From Alphaproteobacteria bacterium (GTDB taxonomy: Bacteria > Pseudomonadota > Alphaproteobacteria > UBA7887): a DNA stretch of 64,000 bases. The notes under the pieces are model-generated. The model made no database searches. It was not told the origin of the DNA and worked only from the letters and a program-made list of their open reading frames with translations. The position numbers and the translations under genes were made by a program. How positions within the stretch are numbered: position 1 is the first letter of the stretch; each line of letters begins with the position of its first letter. Of the stretch, positions 1 to 22,695 are shown one piece after another. The stretch spans positions 2,560,001 through 2,624,000 of the forward strand of contig CBDCGL010000011.1 of NCBI GenBank assembly GCA_965216755.1. Reading direction: 5' to 3'.

Positions 1-119
1 TCGATCCGATCCGCCCCCAATACCGCATTACAGATGTATGGCGATCTGGTGATCCGGCCACCCGAAACATCTCAACATATTGCTAATACATAATAATTTG
101 TGTTTTCCGCTGAATTTGC

Positions 120-1259
120 TCAGGCCGATGCGGCGCCTCTCTCTCGTTGGTTCGACCAGGCGATCCGACCGGCGAGCTCGCGGCTCAGATTGAGCAAGAC
201 CTTGGCCGCAATCTCTGGTTCGGCTCGTATGAAGCGCTCCAAGAAATCGCCCGACAGCACCAGCGCCTCGCCTTCGGTTTGCGCGATGACGTTGGCGGTT
301 CTTGGCACCGCGGTTAAAAACGCGATTTCGCCGAAAGTATCGCCAGCGCCGTAGACCGCCAATGGTGGCCCGTCATCATCGCCCAGTCTCACCTCAGCAA
401 GGCCCTTCAGCAAAACATACACCGTATTGTCACGTTCGCCTTGCCGGATTAGCCGATCGCCGGGTCGCACATTCATGATCGTCGCCTTATCCAGGAAACG
501 CGCCGCTTCGTCCTGGGTCAGACCACGCAGTAGGGCAACGGCATGCAGCGGATCATGAGCAACCCGTTCGGCGAGCAAATCAAAAAACACGTCCTCGCCA
601 ATCAGACCAGCGCTCTGCAACTTGACATAGTCTGGATAGGTGCGCTCGAACCAAGCCCGCGCGGGTGGGTCGATCCGGTGTTCGGGCAAGACCGTGGCCA
701 AGGGCGAACGGACAGTCTTGAAATAGCCAAGGTCGCCAATCAGCATCAAAATCGGCACTTTGTAGCCAAATGCCGTGTCGTTATAGCCGCGCGTGTAACG
801 GCGGTAGCCGAGCTGCTCATAGAAGGGCAGCAAGTGTGGGCTGCAGTCGCCGAAATTAGTTCGAATGCCGCGCGCGAGAGCGGTCAGAAACGCTTCGCGC
901 ACCAGCTGAAAGATCGCCATTGAATTGCGCTTATGCGGCGCAATGATAAATCGACTAGAGGTCACGACGGCGCTGGCTCCGAATTCGGCCATGGCCGGAC
1001 CCATTTCAAACGCATTGATCAGCGGCGCCGGATCGCGGACGTGATCCATCAGGATCAGACGCAGCGAGCCAACCACGTCGTCGCCCTCGAAAACCGCAAA
1101 CGACAACGACTGGTCGTCATATTGGTCGCGAAGCCAACGGTTTTCGTGGTCGGCCTGCGCCGTCAAGCCCAGCTCTTCCACATAGACCTGATAGCGAAAC
1201 CGATAAATAGCCTCGCGTTCGGCCTCGGACTCGACAACACGAACGACGGTCTTCGCCAT
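120..1259 (-). CDS. FeeM/LuxI-like GNAT acyltransferase fused to a C-terminal cyclic-nucleotide-binding domain
   Basis: N-terminal 'EREAIYRFRYQVYVEE...LRDQYD...VVGSLRL...SSRFII' is typical of N-acyl amino acid/AHL synthase-type GNATs. C-terminal 'LIRQGE...VYVLLKG...FGEIAFLTAVPRTANV' is an intact cNMP phosphate-binding cassette. Confidence 0.8.
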   Translation of the reverse strand: MAKTVVRVVESEAEREAIYRFRYQVYVEELGLTAQADHENRWLRDQYDDQSLSFAVFEGDDVVGSLRLILMDHVRDPAPLINAFEMGPAMAEFGASAVVTSSRFIIAPHKRNSMAIFQLVREAFLTALARGIRTNFGDCSPHLLPFYEQLGYRRYTRGYNDTAFGYKVPILMLIGDLGYFKTVRSPLATVLPEHRIDPPARAWFERTYPDYVKLQSAGLIGEDVFFDLLAERVAHDPLHAVALLRGLTQDEAARFLDKATIMNVRPGDRLIRQGERDNTVYVLLKGLAEVRLGDDDGPPLAVYGAGDTFGEIAFLTAVPRTANVIAQTEGEALVLSGDFLERFIRAEPEIAAKVLLNLSRELAGRIAWSNQRERGAASA

Positions 1260-1900
1260 TACGGCCTCTGGGTCGCTTCACGCAGCATGCGCGGGTAGAT
1301 ATCCGCCATCACATCCGCAACATGATGCACGTCGGCCAAGTCCTGGCCCACAATGTGCGCCTCGATCTGCTCAATAATGTCCTTGGTGTGGTCTTGATCG
1401 GCTTCACCATGACCAGCCAAAAAACGAACCCCATCGGGCAACGCCAGTCCTTTGCCGACTTGTTCGGCGATCAAATGACCCAAGTCCTCACCCATCGCTT
1501 CCAGTACGAACAACCAACCAAACAGTCCGACCGGATTGGCATAGGTCGCGGTGTAATACTCGTATCCGATCATGGCCGCGCAGGCCGGCACGGGCCGGGT
1601 CGCGGCGACATCGTCACGTGAGACACCCAGCGCCGCCAAGTCACCGAGAGCCCACTCATCGTGCCCAAGTTCCTCGCGGGCATGGTGAAGCAGGTAATCC
1701 GCGACCGGTGGATTGCGCCCGACCGCGCGCGCGCCGGCGATGCCGATCACGATGGCGCTGTGCTGGGCGTAGTGCCAGACATTGGTCAGATAGCGCACAT
1801 AGACATCGCGGTCCGCCTTGCCTGCAATCAGGTCTTGGACAGCGCCGATTTGTACAATGTCGTCGCGCACCGCTCGGCGAAGTTGCGCCAAATACTCCAT
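1259..1900 (-). CDS. Heme-oxygenase-like diiron (iron-containing redox, TenA/PqqC/CADD-like) enzyme
   Basis: 'HAREELGH', 'VLE', 'FLAGHGEADQDH' metal-ligand pattern. Stop overlaps the GNAT start (TAATG). Start at 1900 (MEYLAQ) is chosen; the ORF is open to 1957. Confidence 0.75.
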   Translation of the reverse strand: MEYLAQLRRAVRDDIVQIGAVQDLIAGKADRDVYVRYLTNVWHYAQHSAIVIGIAGARAVGRNPPVADYLLHHAREELGHDEWALGDLAALGVSRDDVAATRPVPACAAMIGYEYYTATYANPVGLFGWLFVLEAMGEDLGHLIAEQVGKGLALPDGVRFLAGHGEADQDHTKDIIEQIEAHIVGQDLADVHHVADVMADIYPRMLREATQRP

Positions 1901-2031
1901 AAGACAAGCTCTTATCTCTGTGGCGCTGTTTGCCCAAGACATGCGCCCAAACACCAATTTTGGCGGAAATCTTAGCCGCCCGCACCGACATTGAGCAAAT
2001 GCCAGCTTGACCGCGCACGCAAGCGCGGCCG

Positions 2032-4074
2032 CTAGGCGCCAGTCGCGAGATTGTAGCTCCCATCCCAGTCCGAGGGCGGCGGATTTGCTGCGCGTTCCGC
2101 GGCACGCCGTGTCATGACCTGAGAGGGCCCGTCAATTTCTGCCAAAGCGCGCCACGCGCTTGCGGCACGCGCGAAATCGCCGGTCCGATAGATGTTGAGC
2201 GCGTTTTCATAGGCCGCCACGGTATGCCGCTGGGCGGCGGTCGCAGTCTCGTTATCGGCGATAATCTCAAATATCGTCAAGGGCGCGTCGATTCCCTTTA
2301 CCCGTACATGATCCAATTCACGCAACAAGAAATGATCGCGTATGGCGTCGGCCGTCGGCGCCCCGGCAACGACATTGCATCGATACAAGCCGGGCAGCGC
2401 TTCCAGCCGCGCCGCGACATTGACCATGGCGCCGATGGCCGTGTAGTTGAATCGCTTCTCATAACCGACATTGCCAACAATGGCATCGCCAGAGTGGATC
2501 GCGACTTTGATGCTGAAAGCATGTTCGCCGGCACGCTTGTCGCGTTCCTGCGTCACGGCCACTTGTTCGGTGATGCGCAGGGCCGCCGCCGCCGCGTCCA
2601 TGGCATGGTCGGCGTTCGGCAGCGGCGCGCCCCAAATCGCCATGACTGCGTCGCCGATGAACTTGTCGACATAGCCGTTCGCGCGATCGACTTCGCGGGC
2701 GACGATGCCGATATAGCGGTTGGTCAGTGCGACCAATTGGCTCGCCGGTATCCGCCGCGACAGTGCGGTGAATCCCGACAGATCGGCAAACATCACGGTC
2801 AAATCATGGTTCGCGCCCCCGAGCGTCAATGGCGTACCGCTATCGGCCAAGCGCGCGACCAAGACCGGCGAAAGATAGCGCCCGAAAGCCTGTTGCACGC
2901 GCCGGCGACGCCGATCTTCGAGCAAATAGCGGATCAAATAGGCGAGCGCCAGAGCGGCGGCAACCGCTATCATCGGGACCCCGGCCGGGAACCATATCTG
3001 CCAATCCAAAAGGACGATTTCACCCAGCCACAATCCGGCCAACGCCACCAGTCCGGCGGCGACCGCAAGCCACGGTACAAGCGTAAGACCAATGGTCGCA
3101 CCAATTGCCCCGGCCGCCGCGCCAATAGCGGCCCGCCATAGCGGCGCGATCAGTTCTGTGACGCGGCCGCGCAACACGGTATCGACGGCAACGGCATGCA
3201 AAAAAACGCCGGGCACGGCCGTACTGGCAAATCCCGGTCGCCAAGCACGCTGAGTGTCCCCATTGGATCGCGGCAAGAAACGGGCTGACGTGATCTTCTG
3301 GTCTTCCTCGGGCAGAGCACCACCGACAAAGACCACCTTGCCGGCAAATGCGTTGCGCAAGGTCTCGGGCGCCGACCGGCCCAACTGAAGAACATCGATC
3401 AGCGGAAAAGTCGGCAGTGATTCCGGGTGAAGATCGGGCGCGAGCAAGACCGGTGTCCGCCAGCGGTCATGTCCCAGGCGCGCCAACACCGCCCCCATGA
3501 GCGAGGCATACCAGTGCTCTTGCACTTCGAATCCTGCCGGTACCCAACGATAGACGCCGTCGTCGTCGGGCCGGACTTCGAGCAAGCCAAGCGCCGCCGG
3601 ATCGTTGCGCAAGGCCGCAATAAAGGGCGCTGCCGGGTTGGTCCGCACCGAACGGCCGAGGACCAAACGGTCCTTGTTCCGCGCCAACGCGGCGACAAAA
3701 TCGCGGTCAGCGTCGCGCTGGAAGGCGTTGCGCGAATAGGCGAGCAACATATCGAAGGCGACAACACGTGCGCCCGCATCGATCAATGTCGTAATCAGTT
3801 GCGCCCAATAGATTCCATAGAACGCACGCGGCCAGCGCGCCATTTCCGGATGTTCCAACGTGGTCGAATCGACAACCACGATCGCGACATCACTCTGCGA
3901 CCGATCTGCGCGTGCGGCACCGGTGGCGCTGTGCACAGCCAACGCGGTATCGAATAGCCAGCCGTCGACGACGGTCAAACCTTCAGATGTCAATGCGGCA
4001 AGGCCGGCAAGGCCCGCACAAAGAACCACGCTCGCGCGTATCACATATTTTCGGATGTTAGCGACCGGCCGCAC
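2032..4074 (-). CDS. CHASE2-domain class III adenylate cyclase
   Basis: Signal/TM, CHASE2 ('RWPRAFY','VAFDMLL','DDDGVYR','GKVVFVG','PGVFLHA'), three TM helices, then cyclase motifs 'VMFADLSGFT','DKFIGDAVMAIWGAP','YTAIG..VNVAARLE', and a TPR-like tail. Confidence 0.92.
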   Translation of the reverse strand: MRPVANIRKYVIRASVVLCAGLAGLAALTSEGLTVVDGWLFDTALAVHSATGAARADRSQSDVAIVVVDSTTLEHPEMARWPRAFYGIYWAQLITTLIDAGARVVAFDMLLAYSRNAFQRDADRDFVAALARNKDRLVLGRSVRTNPAAPFIAALRNDPAALGLLEVRPDDDGVYRWVPAGFEVQEHWYASLMGAVLARLGHDRWRTPVLLAPDLHPESLPTFPLIDVLQLGRSAPETLRNAFAGKVVFVGGALPEEDQKITSARFLPRSNGDTQRAWRPGFASTAVPGVFLHAVAVDTVLRGRVTELIAPLWRAAIGAAAGAIGATIGLTLVPWLAVAAGLVALAGLWLGEIVLLDWQIWFPAGVPMIAVAAALALAYLIRYLLEDRRRRRVQQAFGRYLSPVLVARLADSGTPLTLGGANHDLTVMFADLSGFTALSRRIPASQLVALTNRYIGIVAREVDRANGYVDKFIGDAVMAIWGAPLPNADHAMDAAAAALRITEQVAVTQERDKRAGEHAFSIKVAIHSGDAIVGNVGYEKRFNYTAIGAMVNVAARLEALPGLYRCNVVAGAPTADAIRDHFLLRELDHVRVKGIDAPLTIFEIIADNETATAAQRHTVAAYENALNIYRTGDFARAASAWRALAEIDGPSQVMTRRAAERAANPPPSDWDGSYNLATGA

Positions 4075-4117
4075 GTCCCATCGCCGCTGCTAAGCTCTCT
4101 TCACCACGCTTTGTGGA

Positions 4118-4774
4118 TCAATCAATCCGGATCAATGTCATGGCCTTGCCCCGCGCCCGGGTCAAGACATCCAAATCGACCCGTCCCACACTTTCGCCGG
4201 ACATGGCCAAGAGTTCCAAAGTCAACGTGGCGTCGTCGCCGAGCTCTTCAATATCTTGCGGCCATGTGAACCGGCGGTCTTCGACCGCGCCTTCATAGAT
4301 AACGCGATCATCACGCAGCACGCGTGCCTGCGCCACGGCGCCGCCCTTGGATCCGGCCATGACCAACGTCGAAGCGCTGCCAAGGCGGACCTTCACAGCA
4401 TTGCCCAAATCGCGGACCAACACCCCGCCGATCCCCGTGCCTTCGGACAACGCGATGGTTTGCGGACAATCTGCGCGTCGAACATCGACAATTTGACCCT
4501 GCTGCACGGTGTAACTCTGCGCGCTGAAATGGAGGCGCCCGCCCGTGACCACGACTTCCTTGCAAGTTGGATAATGGAGAAACTCGACCGTACCCGCATC
4601 CGCCAGCTCAACGGCATCGCCTGGCCACAGTTCCGAGAACGGTTCGACCTCGGCGCCACTGGTCGCGTCCAATGCCAAGGCGACGGCCGAGTCGGCGTGG
4701 GCGCGCAATGTCGGCGCCACGACAACACAGAGGCTGGCCAATAACAACAAGCGCGTCATGCGGTAGCACGTCAT
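4118..4774 (-). CDS. Secreted hypothetical protein (putative periplasmic partner of the CHASE2 cyclase)
   Basis: Signal peptide 'LLLLASLCVVVAPTLRAHA', two Cys in the mature part, 43 bp upstream of the cyclase on the same strand. Confidence 0.7.
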   Translation of the reverse strand: MTCYRMTRLLLLASLCVVVAPTLRAHADSAVALALDATSGAEVEPFSELWPGDAVELADAGTVEFLHYPTCKEVVVTGGRLHFSAQSYTVQQGQIVDVRRADCPQTIALSEGTGIGGVLVRDLGNAVKVRLGSASTLVMAGSKGGAVAQARVLRDDRVIYEGAVEDRRFTWPQDIEELGDDATLTLELLAMSGESVGRVDLDVLTRARGKAMTLIRID

Positions 4775-6758: not shown

Positions 6759-8126
6759 TTGCGTGCATGCGACGTTCGCCTGTTAACACGCCGGACGGTG
6801 CGCAATGGGGTGACCAGGACACGAAAAAATCTTGAACGGCGCCGCCATGGCGGCGCGGGCAATGGCGCGCGCGGCGCACCACGCCCGCTGGCCGGTGTGA
6901 TCTTGTTATGTTGCGTCTGTGTTATGGCGCTTGGACCTGCGGCGCTGGCGCAGCGTTCTCAGCAAGATCCAAACGCGTTCGCCGATGCCGAGGCGTTGGA
7001 AGGCGCCGCCCGTGACGGCGATCCACAGGCGCTGTTTACATTGGCCGATCAGTATGAGCAGGGCTTGGGCCGTGACTTTGATCTGACGGCGGCGGCACAC
7101 TACATGGAACTCGCGGCCGAACGTGGCCACCGTGCGGCACAGTATCGCATGGCGCTGATGCTGGCGCGGGGCGTTGGCGTGACCGCCGATACGCTCGAGG
7201 CGTATCGCTGGTGCCATTTGGTCGTCGGCGATGAGACCGATGGCGACGCGGCCCGAGACGATCGTGAGCCAGATACGATCGCCCTATTGGCGCGATCACT
7301 TTGCGCAACGTTGGCGGACACACTCTCCGTGGAGGATGTTCGCGCTGCCGAAGACCAAGCATCATCATTTGTCGCGGTCACTGGCCCCGTGCCGTCTGCG
7401 CAAGCGACGGCACAGGCGGCCGCCGACGACGATGTGGACGGCGATCCGGTGGCGCAGATTCTGGCACGGTTGCCGGCCGGGCAGTGCGGCGCCTACCAGA
7501 TCACCCAGGACGGCGACAACCGGTTTCAGCTTGCTGCGTATGCACCCAGCGCCGCGGCCAGAGACGCACTGGCGTCGGCATTTCGCGCCGAGACCGAAGC
7601 CAATGACGAGGCGATCAAAATCACGGTGCTGGCGCCCGTACTATGTGCCGTGATCGCGCTGATCGACCGACATCGGGCCACGGCACCCGTTTCCATTGGC
7701 ACCCTGTACAATGGGCGCGGGGAGGAAACCGACCTTTTCCAAGACGGCGACAGCGTCATTTTGGACATCTCACCGCGCGAGACGCCACACTATGTCGCCA
7801 TCGACTATTTGGTCGCCGATGGTGTCGCCGCGCGCCTGTATCCGCTTACATCCGAGAGTGAACACCTCCTGTCTGCCGGCGAACGACTGCGGCTGGGAGC
7901 CGAGGGGTCGCCATCAGGGGTGTGGGAGGTGGGGCCGCCATTTGGCTCTGACCTGTTGGTCATATTGGCGTCGCCCGACGCGCTGCAGCTTCGGATTCCG
8001 GCGCAAGACAGTGTCGCCGACTACACATCCACCCTTGAAAACGCGCTACGCGACAGCGGACCGAATGGGTCGTTGCTGATAGGCTATCGCGTGGTCACGA
8101 TCGAACCCGCTGGATCGACGCGATGA
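6759..8126 (+). CDS. Exported Sel1-repeat protein with C-terminal DUF4384-like domain
   Basis: Signal peptide '...VMALGPAALA'; Sel1 motifs 'GDPQALFTLADQYEQGLG','GHRAAQYRMALMLARGVG'; C-terminal 'FQDGDSVILDI...IDYLVADG...LYP...WEVGPPFGSDLLVILAS'. The true start is uncertain and probably downstream of 6759. Confidence 0.75.
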   Translation: MRACDVRLLTRRTVRNGVTRTRKNLERRRHGGAGNGARGAPRPLAGVILLCCVCVMALGPAALAQRSQQDPNAFADAEALEGAARDGDPQALFTLADQYEQGLGRDFDLTAAAHYMELAAERGHRAAQYRMALMLARGVGVTADTLEAYRWCHLVVGDETDGDAARDDREPDTIALLARSLCATLADTLSVEDVRAAEDQASSFVAVTGPVPSAQATAQAAADDDVDGDPVAQILARLPAGQCGAYQITQDGDNRFQLAAYAPSAAARDALASAFRAETEANDEAIKITVLAPVLCAVIALIDRHRATAPVSIGTLYNGRGEETDLFQDGDSVILDISPRETPHYVAIDYLVADGVAARLYPLTSESEHLLSAGERLRLGAEGSPSGVWEVGPPFGSDLLVILASPDALQLRIPAQDSVADYTSTLENALRDSGPNGSLLIGYRVVTIEPAGSTR

Positions 8127-9313
8127 GCCTGCTGAAGAACCCCTTTTTGTGGCAAGCCGTGGTCGCGCTGTTGTTTGTGCCCCTGCTGCTGACCATGGCG
8201 GCGCCGTTAGCCCCGGTCGCGCCCTTGATCGCGTTGGTGGCGGCCTGCTATGTGATCTGGCGTCTCACCCGCATCGGCGGCGTGGTACGACGGGCCGCTG
8301 CCGCCCTGGCGCCCGACCGCACGCCGCCGCGCGCACCCGCCATATCCGGCACGATCGCACCGCTCGAGCAAAGCGCCAAAATCGACCCCGATGACATGCG
8401 CCGCTATCTCAATGCCTGCGTCATCGGCCAGGACGTCGTCGCCGGACAACTGGCGCGCGGTATCTATCGTCGAATGGCCCAACAACAACGCAACAAACCG
8501 ATCTTTACGGCTTTGCTGAGCGGGCCCACCGGAACAGGCAAGACCGAAATCGCGAAAGCGGTCGCCCGTTATTTGTTTGGCAGCGTCAGCAGCATGTTTC
8601 GAGTCGACTGCGCCAATGTGCTCGGCGAAGCCGGCCTGCAAACTCTGATCGGATCGCCCAAGGGATTTGCCGGGTCCAGTTCGTGGGGATCGCTGACCGC
8701 CCATTTGCGGGCGATGCCACGCACTGTCCTGTTGTTCGACGAAATCGAAAAGGCGGTGCCTTCACCCACCGCACCGATGGCCAAATTGCTGTTGTCACTG
8801 CTCGATGAGGGCGTGTGTACCGAGCAAAGCGACGGCACCGCGGTCAGCGCAACCGAGGCGGTGATCCTGCTCACCTCGAACGCGGCGCAAAAGCGCCTTG
8901 GCCCCATATTCCAGCAATATCGGGACAAGCCCGAGGAGCTGGTCCGGGCCACCAAGGACACGCTTCAGGACCATTTTGCCCCCGAATTCCTGGCCCGTAT
9001 CGATCTGGTCACCACCCTGGCGCCGCTTGACGACCAGGCGCGCGGCAAGATCATCGCCATGCACGCCGGCCGCATCGGTGATTCCTATGGGGTCAGCATT
9101 GCCAGCGTCGACGCCTCCTTTGTCAACGAAGCCCTGCGTATCGCGAACAGTCTGGAAGACTACGGGACGCGTGAAATCATCCGTTGGGTCGAACAAGCCG
9201 TTGCCGACCAGTTGATCAAGGCGGCGGAAAGCGGCACCAAACGCGCCTCGCTCGCTTGGTTAGACGGCGCCGTGCGGGTCACACCGGTCAGCGACGCCGC
9301 CGAAACGCCGTGA
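8123..9313 (+). CDS. Membrane-anchored stand-alone ClpA/ClpB D2-type AAA+ ATPase
   Basis: Two N-terminal TM segments; Walker A GPTGTGKT; pore loop LIGSPKGFAG; Walker B LLFDEIEKA; sensor-1 LTSN; PEFLARID; sensor-2 YGTR. ATGA overlap with the upstream gene. Confidence 0.85.
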   Translation: MSLLKNPFLWQAVVALLFVPLLLTMAAPLAPVAPLIALVAACYVIWRLTRIGGVVRRAAAALAPDRTPPRAPAISGTIAPLEQSAKIDPDDMRRYLNACVIGQDVVAGQLARGIYRRMAQQQRNKPIFTALLSGPTGTGKTEIAKAVARYLFGSVSSMFRVDCANVLGEAGLQTLIGSPKGFAGSSSWGSLTAHLRAMPRTVLLFDEIEKAVPSPTAPMAKLLLSLLDEGVCTEQSDGTAVSATEAVILLTSNAAQKRLGPIFQQYRDKPEELVRATKDTLQDHFAPEFLARIDLVTTLAPLDDQARGKIIAMHAGRIGDSYGVSIASVDASFVNEALRIANSLEDYGTREIIRWVEQAVADQLIKAAESGTKRASLAWLDGAVRVTPVSDAAETP

Positions 9314-9329
9314 TGACCCGCCCCCGGCC

Positions 9330-12300
9330 ATGACGGCACCGGCACCCAAGACCGGGCTTGGTGCCCGCCTTTCGTGGATTCTCCGCCACGACTGGCTGTT
9401 TGTTCCCGCCATGATTGTGACCCTGTATGGCGGTTATCTGTCGGTCACGGCGCCGCCCAATTGGCTGCAGCGTGTACCTGTCGCGGTCGATGATGTGGTC
9501 ACTGGCGCCCGACAGGACTTGACCGCGACCGTCGATGAACTTCAAGTGGCCAGCAACGAAGCGCGCCGCCTGTTTGACGATGCCAGCGCTGAATTCGCGC
9601 AGGAACGGGAGTCGCTGCAAGACGCGGTCGCATCGCGCGACACCGAAATCGACGCGCTCAACGAGTCCTTGGACGAGACGCGCGAGGCACTCGATCAACG
9701 CACCCAAACCTTGAATGAACGCGACGCGCGTTTGGCCGAATCGCGCGACTCGGTCGCCGCCTTGGAACAAGAAGCCACCGCAATCGCAAGCGAACGCGAC
9801 GACCTGCGTACGGCGCTGGATTTTGCCGAATCCGACCTGGCGCGCGCGCAGGACCGGGTTGCCGCTTTGCAGGCCGCGTTGGCCGAACGCGCCGCGTCCG
9901 TCGAATCGCTGACCAGCGAGGCCGCCAATGCCAGCACACAAACCGATGCCCTGCGCGACTCTCTGACCGGCGCGCAACGAGACCTTGACGCTGCCGAGCA
10001 ACGCGTCGTGGCCTTAGAGGAAGCTCTGGCCGATCGTGAGGCCAGCGTCACGCGACTCGAAGAACAGTTGACCGCGACAGCGGCCGAACGTCGCGAACTG
10101 GAAAGTGCACTGAGCGCCGCACAACAGGACGTCGCGGCGGCACGCGACCAAGCGGCTGTCTCAGACGCCCGAGTCGCGGAACAAGCCGCAGAAATCACCG
10201 CGGACCAGCAAGAGATCACCAGGCTCAACACGGCTTTGACGACCGCACGCGCGCAAACTGCCGCGACGGAACAGCAAATGGTCGAGGTGAACAGCGGTTT
10301 GGACGCTTTGCGCAACGAACGCGCGGCCTTGGCCGCGTCTGTCGACAGCCAAAGACAGCGCATCGCGACATTGACGTCAACGCTGGCCGACGCCGAAACC
10401 CAGCTCGGTCAAAGTGCCGCCCAGTTGGCGGCGCGCGACGCCACGATCGAGCAACTCAACCAGCAAATCAGATCCGCCCAATCGGCCTCCGACAGCCTGC
10501 GTGAAACGCTGTCCGACGTGACCACGGCCAGCGGCGAGACCCAAGGCCAAATCGCCACGCTCGGCGCCACGCTGGCGCAAACCCGGGCCGAACGGACCGC
10601 ATTGGCCACGGAGGTCGCGGCACAGCAAGCGCAAATCGAAACGCTCAATGCGGCGCTGGGAGACGCCCGAACTGCGTTGGAAAGCGGCACCGCGACGTTG
10701 GCCGAACGCGAAGCGGCGGTGGCGTCGTTGGAAGAGCAAATCGCGGCCGCGACGGCGGAACGGGCCCGTTTGGTCGCGTCGGTGCAAGAAGCCGAAGCGG
10801 CCGCTGCCGACGCGCGGGCACAGACGTCAGATCTTGAAGCCCGTTTGCAAGAACAGGCTGCCGCGATTGCCACGCAGGAACAACAGGTCACGATATTGCG
10901 CACCGACCTTGATGCCGCGCGCGAGGCGGCGACGGCCGCAACGGCCGATGCCGCTGCGCTGGCCACCGATCGCGACGCGTTGGTCGCGGAACGTGACCAA
11001 TTGGCCGAGGCGCGGACAGCCGAAGCCGACCGCATCACGACGCTGACAGCGTCACTGGCGGCGGCCCAAGCGGCACACGACGACACCCTCGCCACGCTTG
11101 CCGAACGGGAGGCGGCCGCCGAAATCGTCACAAGCCAGGTCGCCGAGGCCGCGCAACAACGCGCGCAATTGCAAGCCGCCCTGGCCGATGCGGAACAAGC
11201 GGCGGCCGCGGCGAGCAGGCGCGCGGCCGCGCTGGAGCAGCAAGTGCGCGATCAGGCCGGCGCCGACGCAGACGCGTCGCAGATCGCCGATTTGACAATC
11301 CGTCTGCGCGACGTGGAAAACGAACGCGATGCGGCGTTGGCATCCTTGGCCGAGGCGGAAGAAGGCGCCGCGGCCGCAACCAATCGCGTGGCCGAACTGC
11401 AGCGCCAAGCCCAAAATCAGGCCGCTGCCGATGCGTCAGAGATCGCTGACCTGGACGCCCGCCTGCAAGAGGTCGAAGACGCGCGCGAAGCCCTTTCCAC
11501 CGAATTGACCGAGCAACAGGCGATGGCGACATCGCTGACCGCGGCGCGTGAGACCGCCGAGGCAGCGCTCGTTGAGGCCAATCGTGAGACCGCGGAATTG
11601 ACCGAACGGCTGCAAGGCATTGACTCCGAACGTGCGACCTTGGCGGCGAACGTAACGTCCCAGCAACAGGAAATGGCGGCTTTGTCCGCGTCACTCGCCA
11701 ACGCCAAAGCGGACTTTGACGGGCAAACCATCGATTTGGCGGAACGCGACGAAACCATCGCGAAATTGACGGCCCGAGTGACCGACGCCGAAGCCGAGAC
11801 CGAACGCCTGTCGGCCGCGGTGGCCGATGGCCGCACCGCCCTGGCGGACAGGGAAACCGACTTGGCGGACGCCCGACGACAAGCCGACGCCGAGCGCGCC
11901 GAATTGGAGCAACTCGGCGACCGCTTGCGCCAATCGGAACGCGAATTGGCACGGCGCACCCGGCTGGCCGGAGCTTTGCAATCGGAAGTCATGCGCCTGA
12001 TGGGAGCCCTTGGCGCATCCCAGAAAGCCGCCGGCACCGGCGATGCGGAGTCGGGCACGGGGCCTGGACAGGCAGCGGCATCCGGTGGCGCCGGATCCGA
12101 CATCGGCAAATATCGGTCGGCGTTCTTCGCGTTGCTCAGCGCGGTGGTTGGTACACGCAGCGATGTGCGCACGGTCGGCGATCGTTTTGTGTTTCCGTCA
12201 GAGGTCTTCTTTCCATCGGGTTCGGCGATCCTTGGCCCCGAAGGCCGCGCGGAATTGGACAAGGTCGCCGATGCGCTATTGGAAATTGCACGCAACATTC

Positions 12301-12557
12301 CGCCGGAAACATCGTGGGTGTTGCGGGTCGACGGTCATACCGACCGGCGCCCCATTCAGACCTCGGAATTTCCGTCGAATTGGGAGCTGTCGACAGCCCG
12401 GGCGCTGTCTGTGGTGCGCTATTTGATCGAACGCGGGATCCCGCCCGACCGCTTGGCCGCGTCGGGATTCGGCGAGTTTCACCCAATCGATCCTGGCCAG
12501 TCCGGAGACGCCTTTCGCCGCAATCGGCGTATAGAACTAAAACTCACCACACGCTGA
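9330..12557 (+). CDS. Giant coiled-coil protein with C-terminal MotB/OmpA-like peptidoglycan-binding domain
   Basis: One N-terminal TM, about 850 aa of Ala/Glu/Gln/Leu heptads, then 'VGDRFVFPSEVFF...LRVDGHTD...SNWELSTARA...GFGEFHP...NRRIELKL'. Confidence 0.88.
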   Translation: MTAPAPKTGLGARLSWILRHDWLFVPAMIVTLYGGYLSVTAPPNWLQRVPVAVDDVVTGARQDLTATVDELQVASNEARRLFDDASAEFAQERESLQDAVASRDTEIDALNESLDETREALDQRTQTLNERDARLAESRDSVAALEQEATAIASERDDLRTALDFAESDLARAQDRVAALQAALAERAASVESLTSEAANASTQTDALRDSLTGAQRDLDAAEQRVVALEEALADREASVTRLEEQLTATAAERRELESALSAAQQDVAAARDQAAVSDARVAEQAAEITADQQEITRLNTALTTARAQTAATEQQMVEVNSGLDALRNERAALAASVDSQRQRIATLTSTLADAETQLGQSAAQLAARDATIEQLNQQIRSAQSASDSLRETLSDVTTASGETQGQIATLGATLAQTRAERTALATEVAAQQAQIETLNAALGDARTALESGTATLAEREAAVASLEEQIAAATAERARLVASVQEAEAAAADARAQTSDLEARLQEQAAAIATQEQQVTILRTDLDAAREAATAATADAAALATDRDALVAERDQLAEARTAEADRITTLTASLAAAQAAHDDTLATLAEREAAAEIVTSQVAEAAQQRAQLQAALADAEQAAAAASRRAAALEQQVRDQAGADADASQIADLTIRLRDVENERDAALASLAEAEEGAAAATNRVAELQRQAQNQAAADASEIADLDARLQEVEDAREALSTELTEQQAMATSLTAARETAEAALVEANRETAELTERLQGIDSERATLAANVTSQQQEMAALSASLANAKADFDGQTIDLAERDETIAKLTARVTDAEAETERLSAAVADGRTALADRETDLADARRQADAERAELEQLGDRLRQSERELARRTRLAGALQSEVMRLMGALGASQKAAGTGDAESGTGPGQAAASGGAGSDIGKYRSAFFALLSAVVGTRSDVRTVGDRFVFPSEVFFPSGSAILGPEGRAELDKVADALLEIARNIPPETSWVLRVDGHTDRRPIQTSEFPSNWELSTARALSVVRYLIERGIPPDRLAASGFGEFHPIDPGQSGDAFRRNRRIELKLTTR

Positions 12558-12571
12558 TCAATAACGGCACC

Positions 12572-12611
12572 GGACCGTGGCGGCCATGTCTGATACCGGC
12601 CGCCACGGTCC
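12572..12611. terminator. 14-bp perfect inverted repeat between convergent genes (likely bidirectional terminator)
   Basis: GGACCGTGGCGGCC (12572-12585) / GGCCGCCACGGTCC (12598-12611); no clear U-tract. Confidence 0.55.
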
Positions 12612-12669
12612 CGTCTCGTGAAATAGCCCGGACCCTTTTGCCATGAACCCGGTCTATCTCGGCGTGAAT

Positions 12670-13275
12670 TCAGCCGCCGAGATTGATGATCTTGACCCGT
12701 CGATTGGCCCCTGAGGCCGGATCGGCACTGTCATACAGCTCCGATTCGCCTTTGCCGACCGTCACCAGGCGGACATGGTCGACAGCGTGCCGTGAGATCA
12801 GATAATTCTGAACCGACAGCGCGCGTTTTTCGGACAAGCTCTGGTTGTAGCTGTCAGAGCCCACGGCGTCCGTGTGGCCTTCGATCACAAACTTAAACGC
12901 ACCGAGATCGTCAGAATTGAGCGCCGCGGCCAAGTTATCCAGCGTGGCCATGCCATCCGGCGTCAACTCCGCAGAGTCGAACCCGAACTCGATCCGCACC
13001 GAGGCGGCGGGACTCAATTGCTCGGGTTGAGCCTGTGTCGCCGCTGTTTGCGGCATCGTTTCCGGATCGGCGTTCGGATCCGGTCGACGTTGAATGCCAC
13101 GCGTGCGGAACATTGGCTGCGGCTTGAGCGCTTGGATGAAATCATCAACGCTGGCGCCATCTTCCAAATAAGCGCTGGCGTCATCAGCTAAGACACCCTG
13201 ATTTGGGCCAAAAACAGCGACGAGCGCCGCGGTCACGGCCACCACGGTTAAACTGCGCATTACGTTCATCGTCAC
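12670..13275 (-). CDS. Exported OmpA-family peptidoglycan-binding protein
   Basis: Signal peptide; 'IEFGFDSAEL...IEGHTDAVGSDSYNQSLSEKRA...GKGE...NRRV'. Confidence 0.9.
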   Translation of the reverse strand: MTMNVMRSLTVVAVTAALVAVFGPNQGVLADDASAYLEDGASVDDFIQALKPQPMFRTRGIQRRPDPNADPETMPQTAATQAQPEQLSPAASVRIEFGFDSAELTPDGMATLDNLAAALNSDDLGAFKFVIEGHTDAVGSDSYNQSLSEKRALSVQNYLISRHAVDHVRLVTVGKGESELYDSADPASGANRRVKIINLGG

Positions 13276-13520
13276 CCCTCTGTCAGGCTTCTTTCGTTAT
13301 TATAACGGGTGTCGGCACTATTGCAGACACCTTAGTCTAACACGCAACAGGACTGGGTGAGGGGTTTGTGGACCAGGGCCGGTGTGCGATGAAATTAAAG
13401 GGTGTTGCATTTTTGCGCCTCGATAAAACGTAGCAACAAGTGAACACGTGAAAAAATCGCGCTTTGTAACTGGAAAGCAAAGGGTTAGCCTTACGAACCA
13501 GAATAGACATTGATCGAATT

Positions 13521-14507
13521 ATGAAGCGCATCGCATTCATTACTGGCTTGCTGCTCTATGCGGCGCCGGCGCTAGCCGACGTGTCGGAAGCGCTGACGGC
13601 GTATCGGCGCGGCGACTACGCGACGGCGATCACCGAATTCACCGTGGCCGCGCAAGCCGGCGATCCTGTTGCACAGTTCAATTTGGCTGTGATTCACCAT
13701 AAGGGCGTCGGCACGTCGCCGGACCCGGCATTGGCCAGCGAATGGTACCGGGCCGCCGGTCTGCAGGGCTTGCAGCAAGCCCAGATTGAATTAGGTCGCA
13801 TGTATGCCACCGGCGCAGGCGCCTTTTGGAACGCCGAAGCCGCCGAGATCTGGTACCGTGCGGCGGCAAAACATGGTGACTCAACCGCGCAGTACCAACT
13901 TGGCGAGATGTACTACAGAGGCGACGGGGTTCAGAAGGACGGCGCCGAAGCCGCCAACTGGTTGCGCTTGGCCGTTGAGCAAAACCATGTGCGCGCGCAA
14001 TTCCTTTTGGGATACCTGCACGCTGCCGGAGTCGGCGTCGCGCAAAGCGATGAATTGGCGGCGAAGTATTATCGCATGGCCGCCGAGGCGGGATATCCGC
14101 CGGCGCAGTTGAATTTGGCCTTCATGTATTCCCATGGCAAGGGCGTGCCGCGCGATTTCAACGAAGCCACGAAATGGAATCGGCGCGCCGCGCGGCAAGG
14201 TTATGCCGGCGCGCAAGGCATTGATATTATTGAACGCAGCAATGTGGACGGGGTGCCACAGAGCTTCGTGGATGCCTATGCGTGGTGGCACATGGCCGCG
14301 GTCCACGGCAACCCCTTAGGGACCAGCTATCGCGACACCCTAAATACGCTGCTAACGCCCGAGGAAGTAACCGAAGCGATCGCTCTGTTTGACCAACTGA
14401 TGAGCGAAGCCAAGGTCGCCGGCAGCAGTCGGGCGACACCGCCCCGCGAGCGTTCGAACATGGTCAACAACCGGCCTGATTTGGCCATTCAAACGTCGGC
14501 AAAATAA
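13521..14507 (+). CDS. Exported Sel1-repeat protein
   Basis: Signal peptide ending 'APALA'; about six Sel1 repeats (e.g. AQFNLAVIHHKGVG, AQYQLGEMYYRGDGV, AQLNLAFMYSHGKGV). Confidence 0.9.
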   Translation: MKRIAFITGLLLYAAPALADVSEALTAYRRGDYATAITEFTVAAQAGDPVAQFNLAVIHHKGVGTSPDPALASEWYRAAGLQGLQQAQIELGRMYATGAGAFWNAEAAEIWYRAAAKHGDSTAQYQLGEMYYRGDGVQKDGAEAANWLRLAVEQNHVRAQFLLGYLHAAGVGVAQSDELAAKYYRMAAEAGYPPAQLNLAFMYSHGKGVPRDFNEATKWNRRAARQGYAGAQGIDIIERSNVDGVPQSFVDAYAWWHMAAVHGNPLGTSYRDTLNTLLTPEEVTEAIALFDQLMSEAKVAGSSRATPPRERSNMVNNRPDLAIQTSAK

Positions 14508-14821
14508 TCGTCGGCGATCACAAATTCGTCACCCCTCCTCCGTCACCGCCACGTGTCTACCGTTAGCAGGTTCTGCGTCTCCCGTGTCGCGCCCCGCGGT
14601 TTGGGTTCGATCTGCCGGCAACAATGCCGCGCAATCAATCCGTTGCCGCGCCACGTGCGCGTGCGCGCAGACCAGATCGACATGCCGCGCCGGACCCGTG
14701 CCGGAACATGGCAGTCGACATAATGAAGCAGGAAAGGAACGACGGGACGTGGCATGATGATTTCGCGAGCGTTAGGATTATTGCCCGCTGGTCGATGCCG
14801 CACATTGATTTGGAGGAAGCC

Positions 14822-17800
14822 ATGACTGTCGAAGCCTATGAGACGCATCCGCGTCGGTTTGGACCGCGTCGGTTTGCGACTTTGTCGGCACGCTGGGGTC
14901 TGTTCGCGGCCCTTTGCCTTGCGATGCCGGGTCTGGTTGTATCGGCGACCAGCAGCCCACATGGAGACTGGTTTATCCGGCCGGCAGCCGCCGCGACCAA
15001 CGTCGCCGATAAGTTCACCGTGGTCGATTGCGTACTGCCCGGGCAAGTGCGCAAGTTGGGTCGCCGGACAACCTATTTGACCGCCCGTCGGGCCACCAAA
15101 ACGTCGATCTTGGACTGCGAAATCCGTGGCGGCGAGTATGTCGCCTATGACCGTGCTTCGTATCAGACGGCCCTGAATGTATGGATGGACGAGGCCGGCG
15201 CGGGCGATCCGCAAGCCCAGCTTTACGTTGGCGAGATCTACGAGAAAGGCCTCGGCGTGGCGCCCGATTACGACCTCGCCGCGGTCTGGTACAAAAAGGC
15301 GGCCGAACAAGGCCTGGCGCCGGCTCAAGTCAATCTCGGCAATCTCTATGAAAAAGGTCTCGGCGTGCCCAAGGATCCGGACACTGCCCTGGCGTGGTAT
15401 CGCCGCGCGTCCGGATTACCGGATGTCGGCCTCGACTATATGCCGTTTGGTGACTTTGCTCAGCAGGTCGAAGGGTTGCGCCAAGAACTGGCGTCACGCA
15501 CCGAACAGCTAGAGCTGCGCACAGAGGAATTGGCGCAACGGACCCAGGAGGTCGAGCAGTTGCGAGGGTCCCTGGGTCAAGCGCAGCGCAGCCTGCATGA
15601 AACGACCCGTCAGTTATCGGCAAGCCAAAAAGCCGCCAGTGCCAAGCAAGCCGAATTGGCCGCGGAGCAGCAAGCCCTAGCCGCGGAACGCGCCGCCCTG
15701 ACCGCCTCGACCGAAGCCGTGAAGACCGAACGCGCCCGCCTGGAAGCGGCGCTGCAGAACGCCGGCGGTACCGACCCGGCGGAACTGCAAGCCTTGCAAG
15801 CGCGGCTTCAAGAGAGCGAACAAAACGTCGCGAAGCACCGCCAAGCCCTTGAAATCCGCAACCAACAAGTGACCCAGCTGAACAGCGAAGTCACCCAACG
15901 GAACCAAGAAATTGCCGCGTTGCAGACGGTCGCGGACAGCAAGGACGCGGAGTTCGCCGCGCTCAAACAAGAGCTCAGTGAGGGCAGCTCAGGCGCCGTT
16001 GCGTTGCGCCAACAGCTGGACCGTCGTGAGGCTGAACTGAAACAACTGACCGCCAAGCTCAGCGGCACCCAAACCGAACTGGAGACCACCAAGAACGCGT
16101 TGGCCGCGCGTACGTCCGAGGCCACCGCCCAGCGGCAACAGTTGGACAGTGTGCGCAGCGAACTTGAGGCGCAACAAAAAGCGCTCGACGCACTCAAAGC
16201 CCAGCAAGACGGTTTGGTCGACAAAGAAGAAGCCGACTCGGCCCGCAACACTTTACAAATGCAACTGCAAGACCGCGCCGATGCCTATATCCAAGCGGAG
16301 GCCGAGGTCGCCCGGCTCAACAGCGCCCTTGCCGACAGCCAGGGCGAGGTGGCGCAACTGCAAAACCAAGTCAACCAACTCGCGGTGCAAGCGACCAACC
16401 AGCGCGAGCAATTGGCCTCCGCGGAACTGGCGGTAGAATCCTCGTCGGCCACCGAAGACGCACTCAAGCAAGAGGTTGAGCGACGCGCCGCCGAGGTCGG
16501 AAGCCTGAACCAGCAATTGGCGGAACTTGCCGACACGTTGCAGCAGAAGTCCGCGCAACTGGCACGACGGGAAGCCGATTCGGAACTTGCCAGCAATCAG
16601 TTGGCCGCCGCGCAACAGGAGCTATCGGATACACGCACGGCGCTCGAAGCGCTGCAATCGGATACCACCGCCAATACGGCCGACTTGAACCAGCGGATCC
16701 AAGCATTGACCGCGCAATACCAAGCGGGACAGGAGAAAGCCGCGCAGCTCGACGCCGAGTTGGCGGATAGTCGCTCGGAGATCGGCCGCCTTGAGTCGCA
16801 ATTGGCCAACCTCGAGGTCACCGCCAATAGCCAGGAACAGGAACTGGTCACGGCAGAGCAGCAGTTTGTTGACGCCGGCCCGATCATCGAACTGATCGAC
16901 CCGGCATTGCTGGTCACGCCCGAAGGGCGCACCATCGCGCGTACGCGCGGCGGCATCGAAAGTCGCGTGCTCATCGGGCGGGTCACCGCACCATCTGGCC
17001 TGTTGACCCTGACCATCAACGACGTCGAACAGCAGTTCGACGAGCAAGGCCTGTTTCGGGCCAGCTTGCCGGTCATCGGCGCCACCACCGGCGTCACGAT
17101 TAGCGCGGTCGATAGCAACGGCTATCGCAGCGCGTTGGACTTCTCTCTTGAGCTCGACGGCTCTGGCGAGATTGCCGCGCCGCCAACACCAGAGGTCAAG
17201 ACCCCCAGTCAACCGCCGCTGGTGCCGATTGCCGATGTCAAGTTCGGCAATTACTACGCGCTGGTCATCGGTAGCAACGACTACGCGCACCTGCCTGATC
17301 TGGAGACCGCGATTACCGACGCCCGCGCCGTTTCGCAGGTGTTGCGGGACAAGTACGGCTTTATCGTGACCACGCTGGAAAACGCAACCCGTTACGACAT
17401 TCTGTCGGCGATGAACGAATTCCGCGAGACGCTAACGGAAGAAGACAACTTCCTGCTCTATTACGCGGGTCATGGTGAGCTCGACCGCGTCAATCAACGC
17501 GGCCACTGGCTGCCCATCGATGCCGAGCCGGACAGCACCGCCAATTGGATCTCCAACGTGGCGATCGCCGACATCCTCAACGCGATGAACGCCAAGCATG
17601 TCTTGGTGGTGGCGGATTCGTGCTATTCCGGCGCCCTGACACGCACCGCTTTGGCGCGCCTCAACACCGGCATGACGCAAGAGCAACTGACCCAGTGGCT
17701 CAAGGTGATGGTGCAAAAACGCGCCCGTCTGGCGTTGACGTCGGGTGGCTTGCAGCCTGTCTATGACAGCTTCGGCGGCGATCATTCGGTATTCGCTAAC

Positions 17801-17980
17801 GCGATCTTGGGCGTATTGAATGACAATGGCGAAGTGTTGGGCGGTCAGCGTTTGTTTGAAGAGGTCGCGGCGCGAGTCAATTTCGTCGCCCAGTCATACG
17901 GCCTTGAACAATTGCCGCAATATTCGCCGATCCGGTTTGCCGGCCATGAATCCGGCGACTTCTTTTTCGTGCCGCTCTAA
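14822..17980 (+). CDS. Exported Sel1 / long coiled-coil / caspase-like (peptidase C14) protein
   Basis: GGAGG RBS before ATG 14822; signal peptide with RRF motifs; Sel1 repeats; about 480-aa coiled coil; C14 domain 'YYALVIG...YYAGHG...VADSCYSG' with intact His/Cys dyad. Confidence 0.9.
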   Translation: MTVEAYETHPRRFGPRRFATLSARWGLFAALCLAMPGLVVSATSSPHGDWFIRPAAAATNVADKFTVVDCVLPGQVRKLGRRTTYLTARRATKTSILDCEIRGGEYVAYDRASYQTALNVWMDEAGAGDPQAQLYVGEIYEKGLGVAPDYDLAAVWYKKAAEQGLAPAQVNLGNLYEKGLGVPKDPDTALAWYRRASGLPDVGLDYMPFGDFAQQVEGLRQELASRTEQLELRTEELAQRTQEVEQLRGSLGQAQRSLHETTRQLSASQKAASAKQAELAAEQQALAAERAALTASTEAVKTERARLEAALQNAGGTDPAELQALQARLQESEQNVAKHRQALEIRNQQVTQLNSEVTQRNQEIAALQTVADSKDAEFAALKQELSEGSSGAVALRQQLDRREAELKQLTAKLSGTQTELETTKNALAARTSEATAQRQQLDSVRSELEAQQKALDALKAQQDGLVDKEEADSARNTLQMQLQDRADAYIQAEAEVARLNSALADSQGEVAQLQNQVNQLAVQATNQREQLASAELAVESSSATEDALKQEVERRAAEVGSLNQQLAELADTLQQKSAQLARREADSELASNQLAAAQQELSDTRTALEALQSDTTANTADLNQRIQALTAQYQAGQEKAAQLDAELADSRSEIGRLESQLANLEVTANSQEQELVTAEQQFVDAGPIIELIDPALLVTPEGRTIARTRGGIESRVLIGRVTAPSGLLTLTINDVEQQFDEQGLFRASLPVIGATTGVTISAVDSNGYRSALDFSLELDGSGEIAAPPTPEVKTPSQPPLVPIADVKFGNYYALVIGSNDYAHLPDLETAITDARAVSQVLRDKYGFIVTTLENATRYDILSAMNEFRETLTEEDNFLLYYAGHGELDRVNQRGHWLPIDAEPDSTANWISNVAIADILNAMNAKHVLVVADSCYSGALTRTALARLNTGMTQEQLTQWLKVMVQKRARLALTSGGLQPVYDSFGGDHSVFANAILGVLNDNGEVLGGQRLFEEVAARVNFVAQSYGLEQLPQYSPIRFAGHESGDFFFVPL

Positions 17981-18377: not shown

Positions 18378-18518
18378 AATTCCCCCACACTTGGAGTAAG
18401 TCGTGGGTGAAATGCGTCCCCTTAGGGACTCAACGAGCCTGAGCACGTGAACCGAGAGCGCGCGTCCCCTGCCCCTGGGACCACGCGTCGTTGCAATCAT
18501 TCACAAAAACTATGGCCG
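18371..18518 (-). ncRNA. Candidate structured cis-regulatory RNA (family not recognised)
   Basis: Nested stems; the closing stem GGCCAUAGUUUUU/GGGAAUUAUGGCC is extended by G-U pairs only on the minus strand and covers the RBS and ATG of the BVMO remnant. Confidence 0.4.
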
Positions 18519-18714
18519 TATCGCGGGCCGACCGCAAGCACCCGACCGTGGACAAATCTGGGCTGTGCCGACCCCGGCGCGGTAGCCCTTGACCGTCGTC
18601 ACCGGATCGCCCGGGCGGGCGATGCCGAGCCATAGTTTCGCAGCGATACTGAACGACTGACGCCACAATGCAGAACGTGGCGTTTTGGTTGGCCAAACCG
18701 TCGAGGAGGCATCC

Positions 18715-19203
18715 GTGATCAACAAGCTCGTTGCGCTCGCCATGGCCGCAATGGTTGGGACCTCGGTGCACGAAATTCCAACCAGGGGATTCAAGCCAAC
18801 GGGAATGCTTGGCTGGAATGGCGTGGCAAGCAGCCGCATGGTCGCGGAAGATGACACTGTTTGGGTCGATGAGATTTCCGGAATGTTTTTCGCCGACGAC
18901 GGCGATACCAACCCGATGCATCTTGCGGTGGTCAAATGCCCGGGAGAACTCGATCCAGGTCTAGACGACAGCGCGATCAACATCTCCGGGTATTGCACCG
19001 TCGCCGACCGCGACAGCGATGTGGCGTTTGTAGACGTGGATAGCCCGTGGAGCGCGCACCCAGACGCGGCACCCGGCAGCTTCCGCTGGGCCGGCGGCAC
19101 GGGAAAATATGCGGGCCTCACCGGAATCAACACGTTCACCGCTGTCACAACCAATAAACGCGAAAACGGCAGCGCGTCGGGCTACGCCATTTGGAATCGT
19201 TGA
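18715..19203 (+). CDS. Secreted hypothetical protein (dirigent/allene-oxide-cyclase-like barrel suspected)
   Basis: GAGGAGG RBS before GTG 18715; signal-like N-terminus; 'GGTGKYAGLTG' motif; two Cys. Confidence 0.65.
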   Translation: MINKLVALAMAAMVGTSVHEIPTRGFKPTGMLGWNGVASSRMVAEDDTVWVDEISGMFFADDGDTNPMHLAVVKCPGELDPGLDDSAINISGYCTVADRDSDVAFVDVDSPWSAHPDAAPGSFRWAGGTGKYAGLTGINTFTAVTTNKRENGSASGYAIWNR

Positions 19204-22642: not shown

Positions 22643-22695
22643 GCGCGGTTCCTCAATGGTTGGCGACCGGTGGCATGAATGACCGGCGCGATTGG

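Follow-up and report, generated by a model that had tools for sequence, protein, structure and literature searches.

Most bacterial receptors for cyclic nucleotides are transcription factors or channels, and in mycobacteria a protein acetyltransferase serves as one. In this last case, cyclic AMP (cAMP) activates Pat, an enzyme of the Gcn5-related N-acetyltransferase (GNAT) fold, through a fused domain that binds cyclic nucleoside monophosphates (cNMP), as stated in PMC5861322. Heme-oxygenase-like diiron oxidases (HDOs) are defined in PMC13108848 by a set of ligands, three histidines and three carboxylates, and one of them, MboA, desaturates the side chain of an amino-acid-derived (peptide) substrate according to PMC13185094. 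Here we describe a locus in which enzymes with these features stand side by side. It occupies positions 120-4774 of a 64,000-nucleotide stretch of an alphaproteobacterial genome (G000:C11:2560001-2624000, G000 being the genome under study), which we call the window, and it holds four open reading frames (ORFs), all on the minus strand. They encode a secreted protein, a cyclase with a CHASE2 sensor domain, an HDO and an acyltransferase with a C-terminal cNMP-binding domain.

The four genes do not make up one conserved operon but fall into two modules of two genes each, which lie head to tail and are conserved separately. Module 1 contains the secreted protein and the cyclase, and module 2 contains the HDO and the acyltransferase. 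In the reading that we favour, with a confidence only somewhat better than even, the modules are independent, and module 2 is a synthase of an oxidatively tailored lipid of the N-acyl amino acid type that would be gated by cyclic nucleotide from the general cAMP pool.

The HDO-acyltransferase cassette and its distribution

Module 2 consists of the HDO gene (1259-1900, minus strand; frame open from 1957) and the gene of a 379-aa acyltransferase that joins a FeeM/LuxI fold to a cNMP-binding domain (120-1259, minus strand; FeeM-cNMP below). The first-pass annotation had called these two genes translationally coupled, and the TAATG overlap is indeed present: the HDO stop codon reads at 1261-1259 and the acyltransferase ATG at 1259, a distance of -1 nt. 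Conservation of the pair was examined from both sides. The forward test used 80 loci with relatives of the acyltransferase, one genome per species and flanks of up to 8 kb, searched with all four proteins and the downstream methyltransferase. The reverse test used 80 metagenome loci fetched through the HDO profile with flanks of up to 5 kb, 63 of which have at least 300 bp downstream. Where the acyltransferase reaches 46% identity, the HDO gene stood directly upstream on the same strand in every genome locus (27/27). Overall, an HDO-adjacent acyltransferase was found in 31 of the 80 genome loci, these 27 plus L072, L073 and the distant L065 and L077. From the HDO side, a FeeM-cNMP acyltransferase lay directly downstream in 47/63 loci. 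Taking both sets together, 61 of the 82 pairs overlap and a further 15 are 0-30 nt apart, in a count where start codons were set by a simple rule and some contigs are common to both collections.

The acyltransferase family is sizeable and strongly conserved. We found 301 homologues of the acyltransferase, with 50-62% identity among the matches listed and source names from many phyla. At E<=1e-30 the family has 1,360 representatives, including multi-cNMP proteins, and FeeM-like and cNMP domains occur together on 138 of the 149 other best 50%-identity representatives, 118 of them 330-470 aa long. A quick tree with 76 rows groups the HDO-linked acyltransferases into one clade (26 rows), which has a Shimodaira-Hasegawa-like approximate likelihood ratio test (SH-aLRT) support of 100 and covers seven phyla as given by the record titles; a second small clade holds L065 and L077. 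No HDO orthologue was found in the 22 genomes of the same family, and 2 of the 400 other genomes of the class have one (E<=1e-30), both with the acyltransferase adjoining; the patchy distribution is read from these two counts. Since the GC content of the cassette (0.588-0.623) is ordinary for this genome (0.591), there is no sign of recent transfer. The combination of HDO and FeeM-cNMP is a rare, scattered, self-contained two-gene unit.

No family recurred among the 38 immediate cassette neighbours scanned, and the cassette contains no acyl carrier protein (ACP) gene. In three loci of the HDO clade from different phyla, a fused MMPL/LolA-like protein of about 1,050 aa and then a DUF1302 protein follow directly downstream of the cassette (L018:3279-7720, L019:3790-8231 and L022:9263-13698), and this set looks like a lipid export route. 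Proteins with a PEP-CTERM motif adjoin the cassette in two loci, L025 and L030; a published link of N-acyl amino acid synthases to the exosortase system is cited in the reference list of PMC7293339.

Related arrangements occur elsewhere. The HDO relatives of L153, L154 and L170, which have no cNMP-type partner, carry directly upstream a FeeM-like gene that lacks the cNMP domain, and L154 continues with a FabH-like ketoacyl-ACP synthase III (KAS III) and then a methyltransferase. The gene order in L065 is HDO, FeeM, FeeM-cNMP. In other clades, a class I S-adenosylmethionine (SAM) methyltransferase comes after the FeeM-cNMP gene; these ORFs form a nine-locus cluster, of which five members, together with that of L062, were confirmed as class I. 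FeeM-cNMP-methyltransferase fusions account for 5 of the 13 long family members scanned. Either following or fused, the class I enzyme is seen with P0147, P0191, P0220, P0237 and P0249 and in loci L034, L036, L045 and L062, and it is unrelated to the FkbM-family gene next to our locus. Family forms of 549-551 aa have a C-terminal DinB_2 domain, not an HDO. This domain is carried by P0048 and P0084, and two cNMP domains are present in P0206, P0274 and P0170.

The same genome has a second FeeM-cNMP gene (G000:C11:1955150-1956406; L007:9150-10406), which encodes 418 aa at 32% identity. It has no HDO, cyclase or methyltransferase beside it and lies between a metalloprotease gene and the aspartyl-tRNA synthetase gene, near a class II ribonucleotide reductase, an arrangement common to several other alphaproteobacterial loci.

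Ligand residues and domains of module 2

The HDO matches Haem_oxygenas_2 with E 3.6e-17 (63.2 bits against a cut-off of 28.9). Because its orthologues align from residue 20 of the 1259-1957 frame, the likely start is the ATG at 1900, which gives a protein of 213 aa. Residues H73, E77, H80, E134, H164, D168 and H171 are invariant in 30/30 orthologues, and the three-histidine, three-carboxylate set (E77-x2-H80, E134 and H164-x3-D168-x2-H171) aligns with the same positions in MboA. By this complete ligand pattern, the protein is a predicted diiron oxidase. Compared with solved structures, the HDO profile scored best against 3dde (1.1e-38), followed by MboA (1.2e-13), CADD (1.1e-3) and BesC (3e-3).

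In the acyltransferase, the FeeM/LuxI fold spans residues 1 to about 230 and the cNMP-binding domain about 245-365. Residues C139 and H142 are invariant. The N-terminal domain matches FeeM (PF21926) with E 1.6e-11 (44.7 bits against 27) and Acetyltransf_5 with E 4.7e-9 (37.3 bits against 22.4). Its profile has its best solved-structure matches in the acyl-homoserine lactone (AHL) synthases BjaI (5w8a, E 8e-4) and TofI (3p2f, 1.5e-3), with which it shares four conserved blocks, R-F/Y-R-Y..VEE, D..D, G-S-L-R and S-R-F, and some sources name homologues 'N-acyl-L-homoserine lactone synthetase'. These matches speak for a LuxI-type synthase that would make an AHL-like autoinducer from SAM and acyl-ACP or acyl-coenzyme A (acyl-CoA), with oxidation by the HDO, so that the output would be a cAMP-gated quorum signal. 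We consider this improbable, as the protein stays under the family cut-offs of Autoind_synth (PF00765; 22.1 bits against 24) and NCBIfam TraI (19.3 against 250), the Glu of BjaI is a Thr here, and no regulator recurs among the immediate neighbours. Two further candidates were rejected on score, the PEP-CTERM/exosortase-associated acyltransferase TIGR03694 (36.8 against 111.95) and OlsB (NF052554; 30.6 against 350). The NCBIfam scan of all four proteins gave sub-threshold matches only.

The C-terminal domain matches cNMP_binding (PF00027) with E 7.4e-19 (67.9 bits against 27.5). Its phosphate-binding cassette (G306, F309, G310, E311, R320 and A322) is invariant in 31/31 aligned acyltransferases, in agreement with the earlier proposal that a cyclic-nucleotide receptor is built into a FeeM-type acyltransferase; the diiron HDO is its obligate partner. 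An adenylate cyclase is encoded elsewhere in 5/5 other cassette-bearing genomes tested; four have class III enzymes and one has only class I. The class-I-only genome, which may be incomplete, offers a weak hint that cAMP is the ligand.

A cNMP domain joined to a GNAT fold also recalls Pat. The protein might accordingly be a cyclic-nucleotide-regulated protein acyltransferase that modifies lysines of target proteins and makes no small molecule, a reading which the published activation of Pat by cAMP (PMC5861322) and a match to NCBIfam Pat (NF058543, 4.8e-9) would favour. We give it very little credence. That match reaches 35.5 bits against a cut-off of 460 and covers nothing but the cNMP domain at residues 246-355, the two domains come in the opposite order, and the GNAT part falls in the FeeM/Acetyltransf_5 class. 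Moreover, the obligate HDO, the neighbouring FabH-like and methyltransferase genes and the fusions with methyltransferases described above point to small-molecule synthesis.

The secreted protein and the CHASE2 cyclase beside the cassette

The first gene of module 1 (4118-4774, minus strand) encodes the secreted protein of 218 aa, for which no Pfam or NCBIfam family was found. Its N-terminus is basic, then hydrophobic, and is followed by LRA-HA, a stretch which we read as a putative signal peptide. Homologues with 28-39% identity occur in three relatives, and the two Cys and the hydrophobic N-terminus are kept in 4/4 aligned sequences. A relationship to FecR was considered and dropped at an hhalign probability of about 1%. 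The second gene (2032-4074, minus strand), 43 nt further on, encodes a 680-aa CHASE2 protein with a class III cyclase domain of the Lys/Thr type, a predicted adenylate cyclase. CHASE2 (PF05226; E 2.8e-25, 89.8 bits against 26.3) covers residues 25-324 and is flanked on both sides by hydrophobic stretches visible in the translation, and Guanylate_cyc (PF00211) matches with E 4.2e-19 (69.3 bits against 21.9). The motifs FADLSGFT, DKFIGD, YTAIG and VNVAARLE fall in the same alignment columns as those of CyaB (3r5g, E 8.4e-24) and of the other top solved cyclases. We take these positions, following the class III literature, to be the two metal-binding Asp, the substrate-selecting Lys and Thr and the transition-state Asn and Arg.

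Each pair keeps its own company. Orthologues of the cyclase (39-42% identity) abut the secreted-protein gene in 3/3 relatives examined, and in none of the three is an HDO or acyltransferase near the pair. Conversely, no cyclase, secreted-protein or FkbM gene was found in the flanks (up to 8 kb) of the 31 HDO-type genome loci or in those (up to 5 kb) of the 80 HDO-found metagenome loci. A more sensitive phmmer search over all 4,123 ORFs of at least 80 aa from the genome loci detected cyclase domains only in L034, L035, L045 and L062, all outside the HDO-linked clades. A CHASE2 cyclase thus lies within 2-6 kb of a FeeM-cNMP gene in 4 of 49 loci of other clades. L034 and L045 have a FecR, CHASE2-cyclase and TPR set that is opposite in strand to the FeeM-cNMP and methyltransferase genes and diverges from them, and in L035 a CHASE2-type cyclase lies about 2 kb upstream on the opposite strand. 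The Burkholderiales contig L062 (25-10437) has a co-oriented series of CHAT, FeeM-cNMP, methyltransferase, a 141-aa ORF, CHAT and CHASE2 cyclase. The gene content of L062 echoes the neighbourhood in the window. According to the quick tree, the four loci represent two or three lineages.

The genome under study encodes 33 class III cyclase domains, 10 cNMP_binding matches (about nine proteins) and two CHASE2 matches. Many of the 33 cyclase domains are in frames of about 1,040-1,160 aa, three of them in tandem at 4408092-4412391, and the number is an unusually rich cAMP and cyclic GMP (cGMP) signalling set for about nine cNMP-binding proteins. With 33 such domains, one cyclase adjacency is unsurprising, and by a rough estimate at least one chance adjacency of a cyclase and a cNMP protein in this genome has a likelihood of about one in ten.

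These results bear directly on the first-pass annotation, which described a self-contained four-gene operon running from signal to metabolite. Its anatomy holds: the four genes are co-oriented, the CHASE2, cyclase, HDO, FeeM-like and cNMP domains all score above their Pfam cut-offs, and the cyclase keeps the named metal, substrate-selecting and Asn/Arg residues position for position with CyaB. Its proposal of one self-contained operon does not, for homologues of the HDO/acyltransferase pair show no cyclase linkage in the flanks searched, and in the three relatives examined the secreted-protein/cyclase pair occurs by itself. What survives of the signal-to-metabolite reading is the set of domains and residues and the coupling of HDO to acyltransferase; what falls is the single unit, which resolves into two separately conserved pairs.

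A dedicated operon of four genes, perhaps five with the FkbM gene, in which a periplasmic signal passes through the secreted protein and CHASE2 and cAMP from the adjacent cyclase switches the acyltransferase, seems to us unlikely. It would fit the co-orientation and gaps of 43, 131 and -1 nt with no terminator standing out. It would also fit the fact that the genome, with 33 cyclase domains, has just two CHASE2 proteins and this neighbour is one of them, a point against pure chance. The 4/49 loci of other clades, with the tight co-oriented array of L062, also lend it some support. Against this stand the empty counts of 31 and 80 loci, the separate life of the secreted-protein/cyclase pair in 3/3 relatives, beside a caspase gene in two of them, the chance estimate given above, and the origin of the four cyclase loci in two or three lineages only. 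A dedicated link to the local cyclase would therefore be, at most, specific to this lineage.

A cyclase next to a cNMP-binding protein might also suggest a Pycsar-like anti-phage pair, where the cyclase makes a cyclic nucleotide upon infection and the cNMP-binding effector responds. In PADLOC, the cyclase domain is hit by PycC models (7.1e-30) and the cNMP domain by PycTIR models (8.5e-18), yet these matches are confined to the shared domains, and the HDO and the secreted protein gave no PADLOC match. In addition, the cyclase is a membrane CHASE2 protein with purine-type Lys/Thr residues, the effector is an acyltransferase and not a TIR or transmembrane protein, and the cyclase-effector pairing recurs in 0/31 and 0/80 related loci. 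On these grounds we rejected the Pycsar reading, which we hold to be the least probable of all.

The modules are separated by a 131-nt spacer (1901-2031, minus strand), measured from the HDO start at 1900. It folds no better than its shuffles (z -1.79), and its GC hairpin has no U run after it; a second spacer that was folded gave z 0.29. Neither promoters nor terminators exceeded the shuffled controls, with 1 promoter-like site against 2.6 expected and 9 terminator-like sites against 7.1 expected. None of these 9 falls in the intergenic gaps of the locus, and the scan placed no promoter-like or terminator-like site in the 131-nt spacer. An Rfam search of L006 10500-18000 matched no family. 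From sequence, co-transcription of modules 1 and 2 would be compatible with these data, as would separate transcription.

On the other side of the cassette, the 5' end of an FkbM-family methyltransferase gene reaches the window (1-20, minus strand) and the gene runs beyond it. The full gene (L006:11229-12020, 263 aa) matches Methyltransf_21 at 1.4e-8 and lies on the same strand at least 99 nt downstream of the acyltransferase. The gene may belong to the set as an unproven fifth member; a conserved place for it there was rejected, since it adjoins the cassette in 0/80 genome and 0/80 metagenome loci.

Module 1 has neighbours of another kind. In two of the three relatives (G002 and G016), a caspase-domain gene is divergent from and adjoins the secreted-protein/cyclase pair, and a metacaspase-CHASE2 fusion is described in PMC3501461. 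The secreted protein and the cyclase thus look like a module of their own, tied if anything to caspase-type genes. The caspase domain of G002 and G016 is 52% identical to window 17237-17977, and for this reason the cyclase module may belong with the plus-strand cluster at 6759-17980. This cluster contains a Sel1 and DUF4384 protein (455 aa), an AAA_2 ATPase (396 aa), a 1,075-aa coiled-coil OmpA protein, a minus-strand OmpA protein, a Sel1-repeat protein and a 1,118-aa Sel1/coiled-coil/caspase (Peptidase_C14) protein. Elsewhere in the window, ORFs of 153, 392, 214, 201 and 236 aa (22660-24305 plus, 18510-19154 minus, 24575-25180 minus and 31265-31975 plus) matched no Pfam family at E<=1e-5.

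Proposed function and comparison with known systems

In the favoured reading of two independent modules, module 2 would have been scattered horizontally, and its acyltransferase would transfer a fatty acyl group from acyl-ACP or acyl-CoA to an amino acid or amine. The HDO, using O2, would act on the amine substrate or else on the N-acyl product and tailor it, for example through desaturation, decarboxylation or N-oxygenation. Binding of cAMP at the C-terminal domain would set the activity of the acyltransferase. The nucleotide would normally come from the general pool of the cell. Module 1 would sense a periplasmic cue through the secreted protein and the CHASE2 cyclase and make cAMP, so the neighbouring cyclase may add to the pool in this genome, and the family as a whole would not need it.

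Several observations weigh against this reading. The HDO is not exclusive to its partner, since 16/63 HDO-found loci have no cNMP-type acyltransferase. The HDO domain is absent from all 149 other best representatives of the acyltransferase family, so no fusion of the two enzymes was seen there, and neither an HDO-acyltransferase nor a cyclase-acyltransferase fusion was found among proteins of at least 665 aa, which is weak evidence. The solved FeeM chain is not matched by the N-domain profile even at E 10, and with the Glu of BjaI aligned to Thr throughout this family, the catalytic mechanism is not secured. The cNMP cassette aligns equally well with the cGMP-binding domain of protein kinase G (PKG) and the cAMP-binding domain of protein kinase A (PKA), so that cAMP and cGMP are indistinguishable by sequence. 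The co-orientation of the cyclase, along with the CHASE2 cyclases near 4/49 FeeM-cNMP loci of other clades, would be consistent with a real link. Finally, we located no published work on the HDO and FeeM-cNMP architecture or its biochemistry in the literature searched, which left subscription journals mostly outside.

A bolder form of the proposal can be put forward tentatively, and we think it rather less likely than the plain two-module reading. The cassette might be a mobile device with a second messenger as input and a lipid signal as output, in which cAMP or cGMP directly gates the making of an N-acyl amino acid or amine, tailored with O2, for export or for insertion into the envelope. 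Such a device would have spread horizontally over at least seven phyla, and in its sister versions a methyltransferase would take the place of the oxidase. In this genome it would have landed behind a CHASE2 cyclase and been wired to a periplasmic cue. If this were true, a cytoplasmic nucleotide signal would be turned into a diffusible or surface lipid signal without a transcription factor.

The interest of the cassette lies mainly in its being widespread and easy to test: with just two genes and no further conserved neighbours, it lends itself directly to heterologous expression. It could yield a new class of lipid or signal, a new HDO reaction and a new type of cAMP output. The locus is also a cautionary case, in that an attractive four-gene "operon" is a juxtaposition of two modules and not a conserved unit.

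Compared with described HDOs (3dde, MboA, CADD and BesC), the window protein has the same Haem_oxygenas_2 domain and the full three-histidine, three-carboxylate pattern. Its nearest solved relative, 3dde, is itself uncharacterised. The subfamily differs in the extra invariant His73 and in its coupling to a FeeM-type acyltransferase, not to ATP-grasp ligases. The cyclase resembles other CHASE2-class III cyclases with a catalytic domain of the CyaB type (Pseudomonas aeruginosa, 3r5g), sharing the catalytic and Lys/Thr residues and the membrane segments around CHASE2, and differs in the conserved, unclassified secreted partner directly upstream. With Pycsar systems the locus shares a class III-type cyclase beside a cNMP-binding protein and the domain-level PADLOC matches; the membrane sensor with purine-type residues, the unrelated effector chemistry and the unconserved pairing set it apart.

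Among acyltransferases, the N-terminal domain is above the cut-offs of the FeeM-type N-acyl amino acid synthases (PF21926) and Acetyltransf_5, although its profile does not match the solved FeeM chain. The TyzA/TyzB/TyzC acyl-oxazolone pathway is similar in pairing an acyltransferase (TyzA) with an O2-dependent oxidase (TyzC), and MMPL-type transporters lie near some loci. Unlike FeeM and the Tyz enzymes, the window enzyme has a C-terminal cNMP-binding domain, and its oxidase is a diiron HDO, not an enzyme of the flavin nitroreductase family. The LuxI-type AHL synthases BjaI and TofI are its best solved matches with four common motif blocks; it differs from them in scoring under the family cut-offs, in the Glu to Thr replacement and in having no conserved receptor gene near.

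The closest precedent for the regulation is Pat (Rv0998/MSMEG_5458), in which, according to PMC5861322, a cNMP domain is likewise fused to a GNAT-fold enzyme and the second-messenger receptor is itself an enzyme. Judged by domain content, the window protein differs in that its cNMP domain is C-terminal where that of Pat is N-terminal, in its other GNAT subclass, in its HDO partner and in a substrate that is likely a small molecule. The principle of a cNMP-regulated GNAT enzyme is therefore already known. What is new is the catalytic class, the order of the domains and the partnership with an HDO: here the receptor domain sits within a biosynthetic acyltransferase of the N-acyl amino acid and autoinducer synthase fold, locked to a diiron oxidase.

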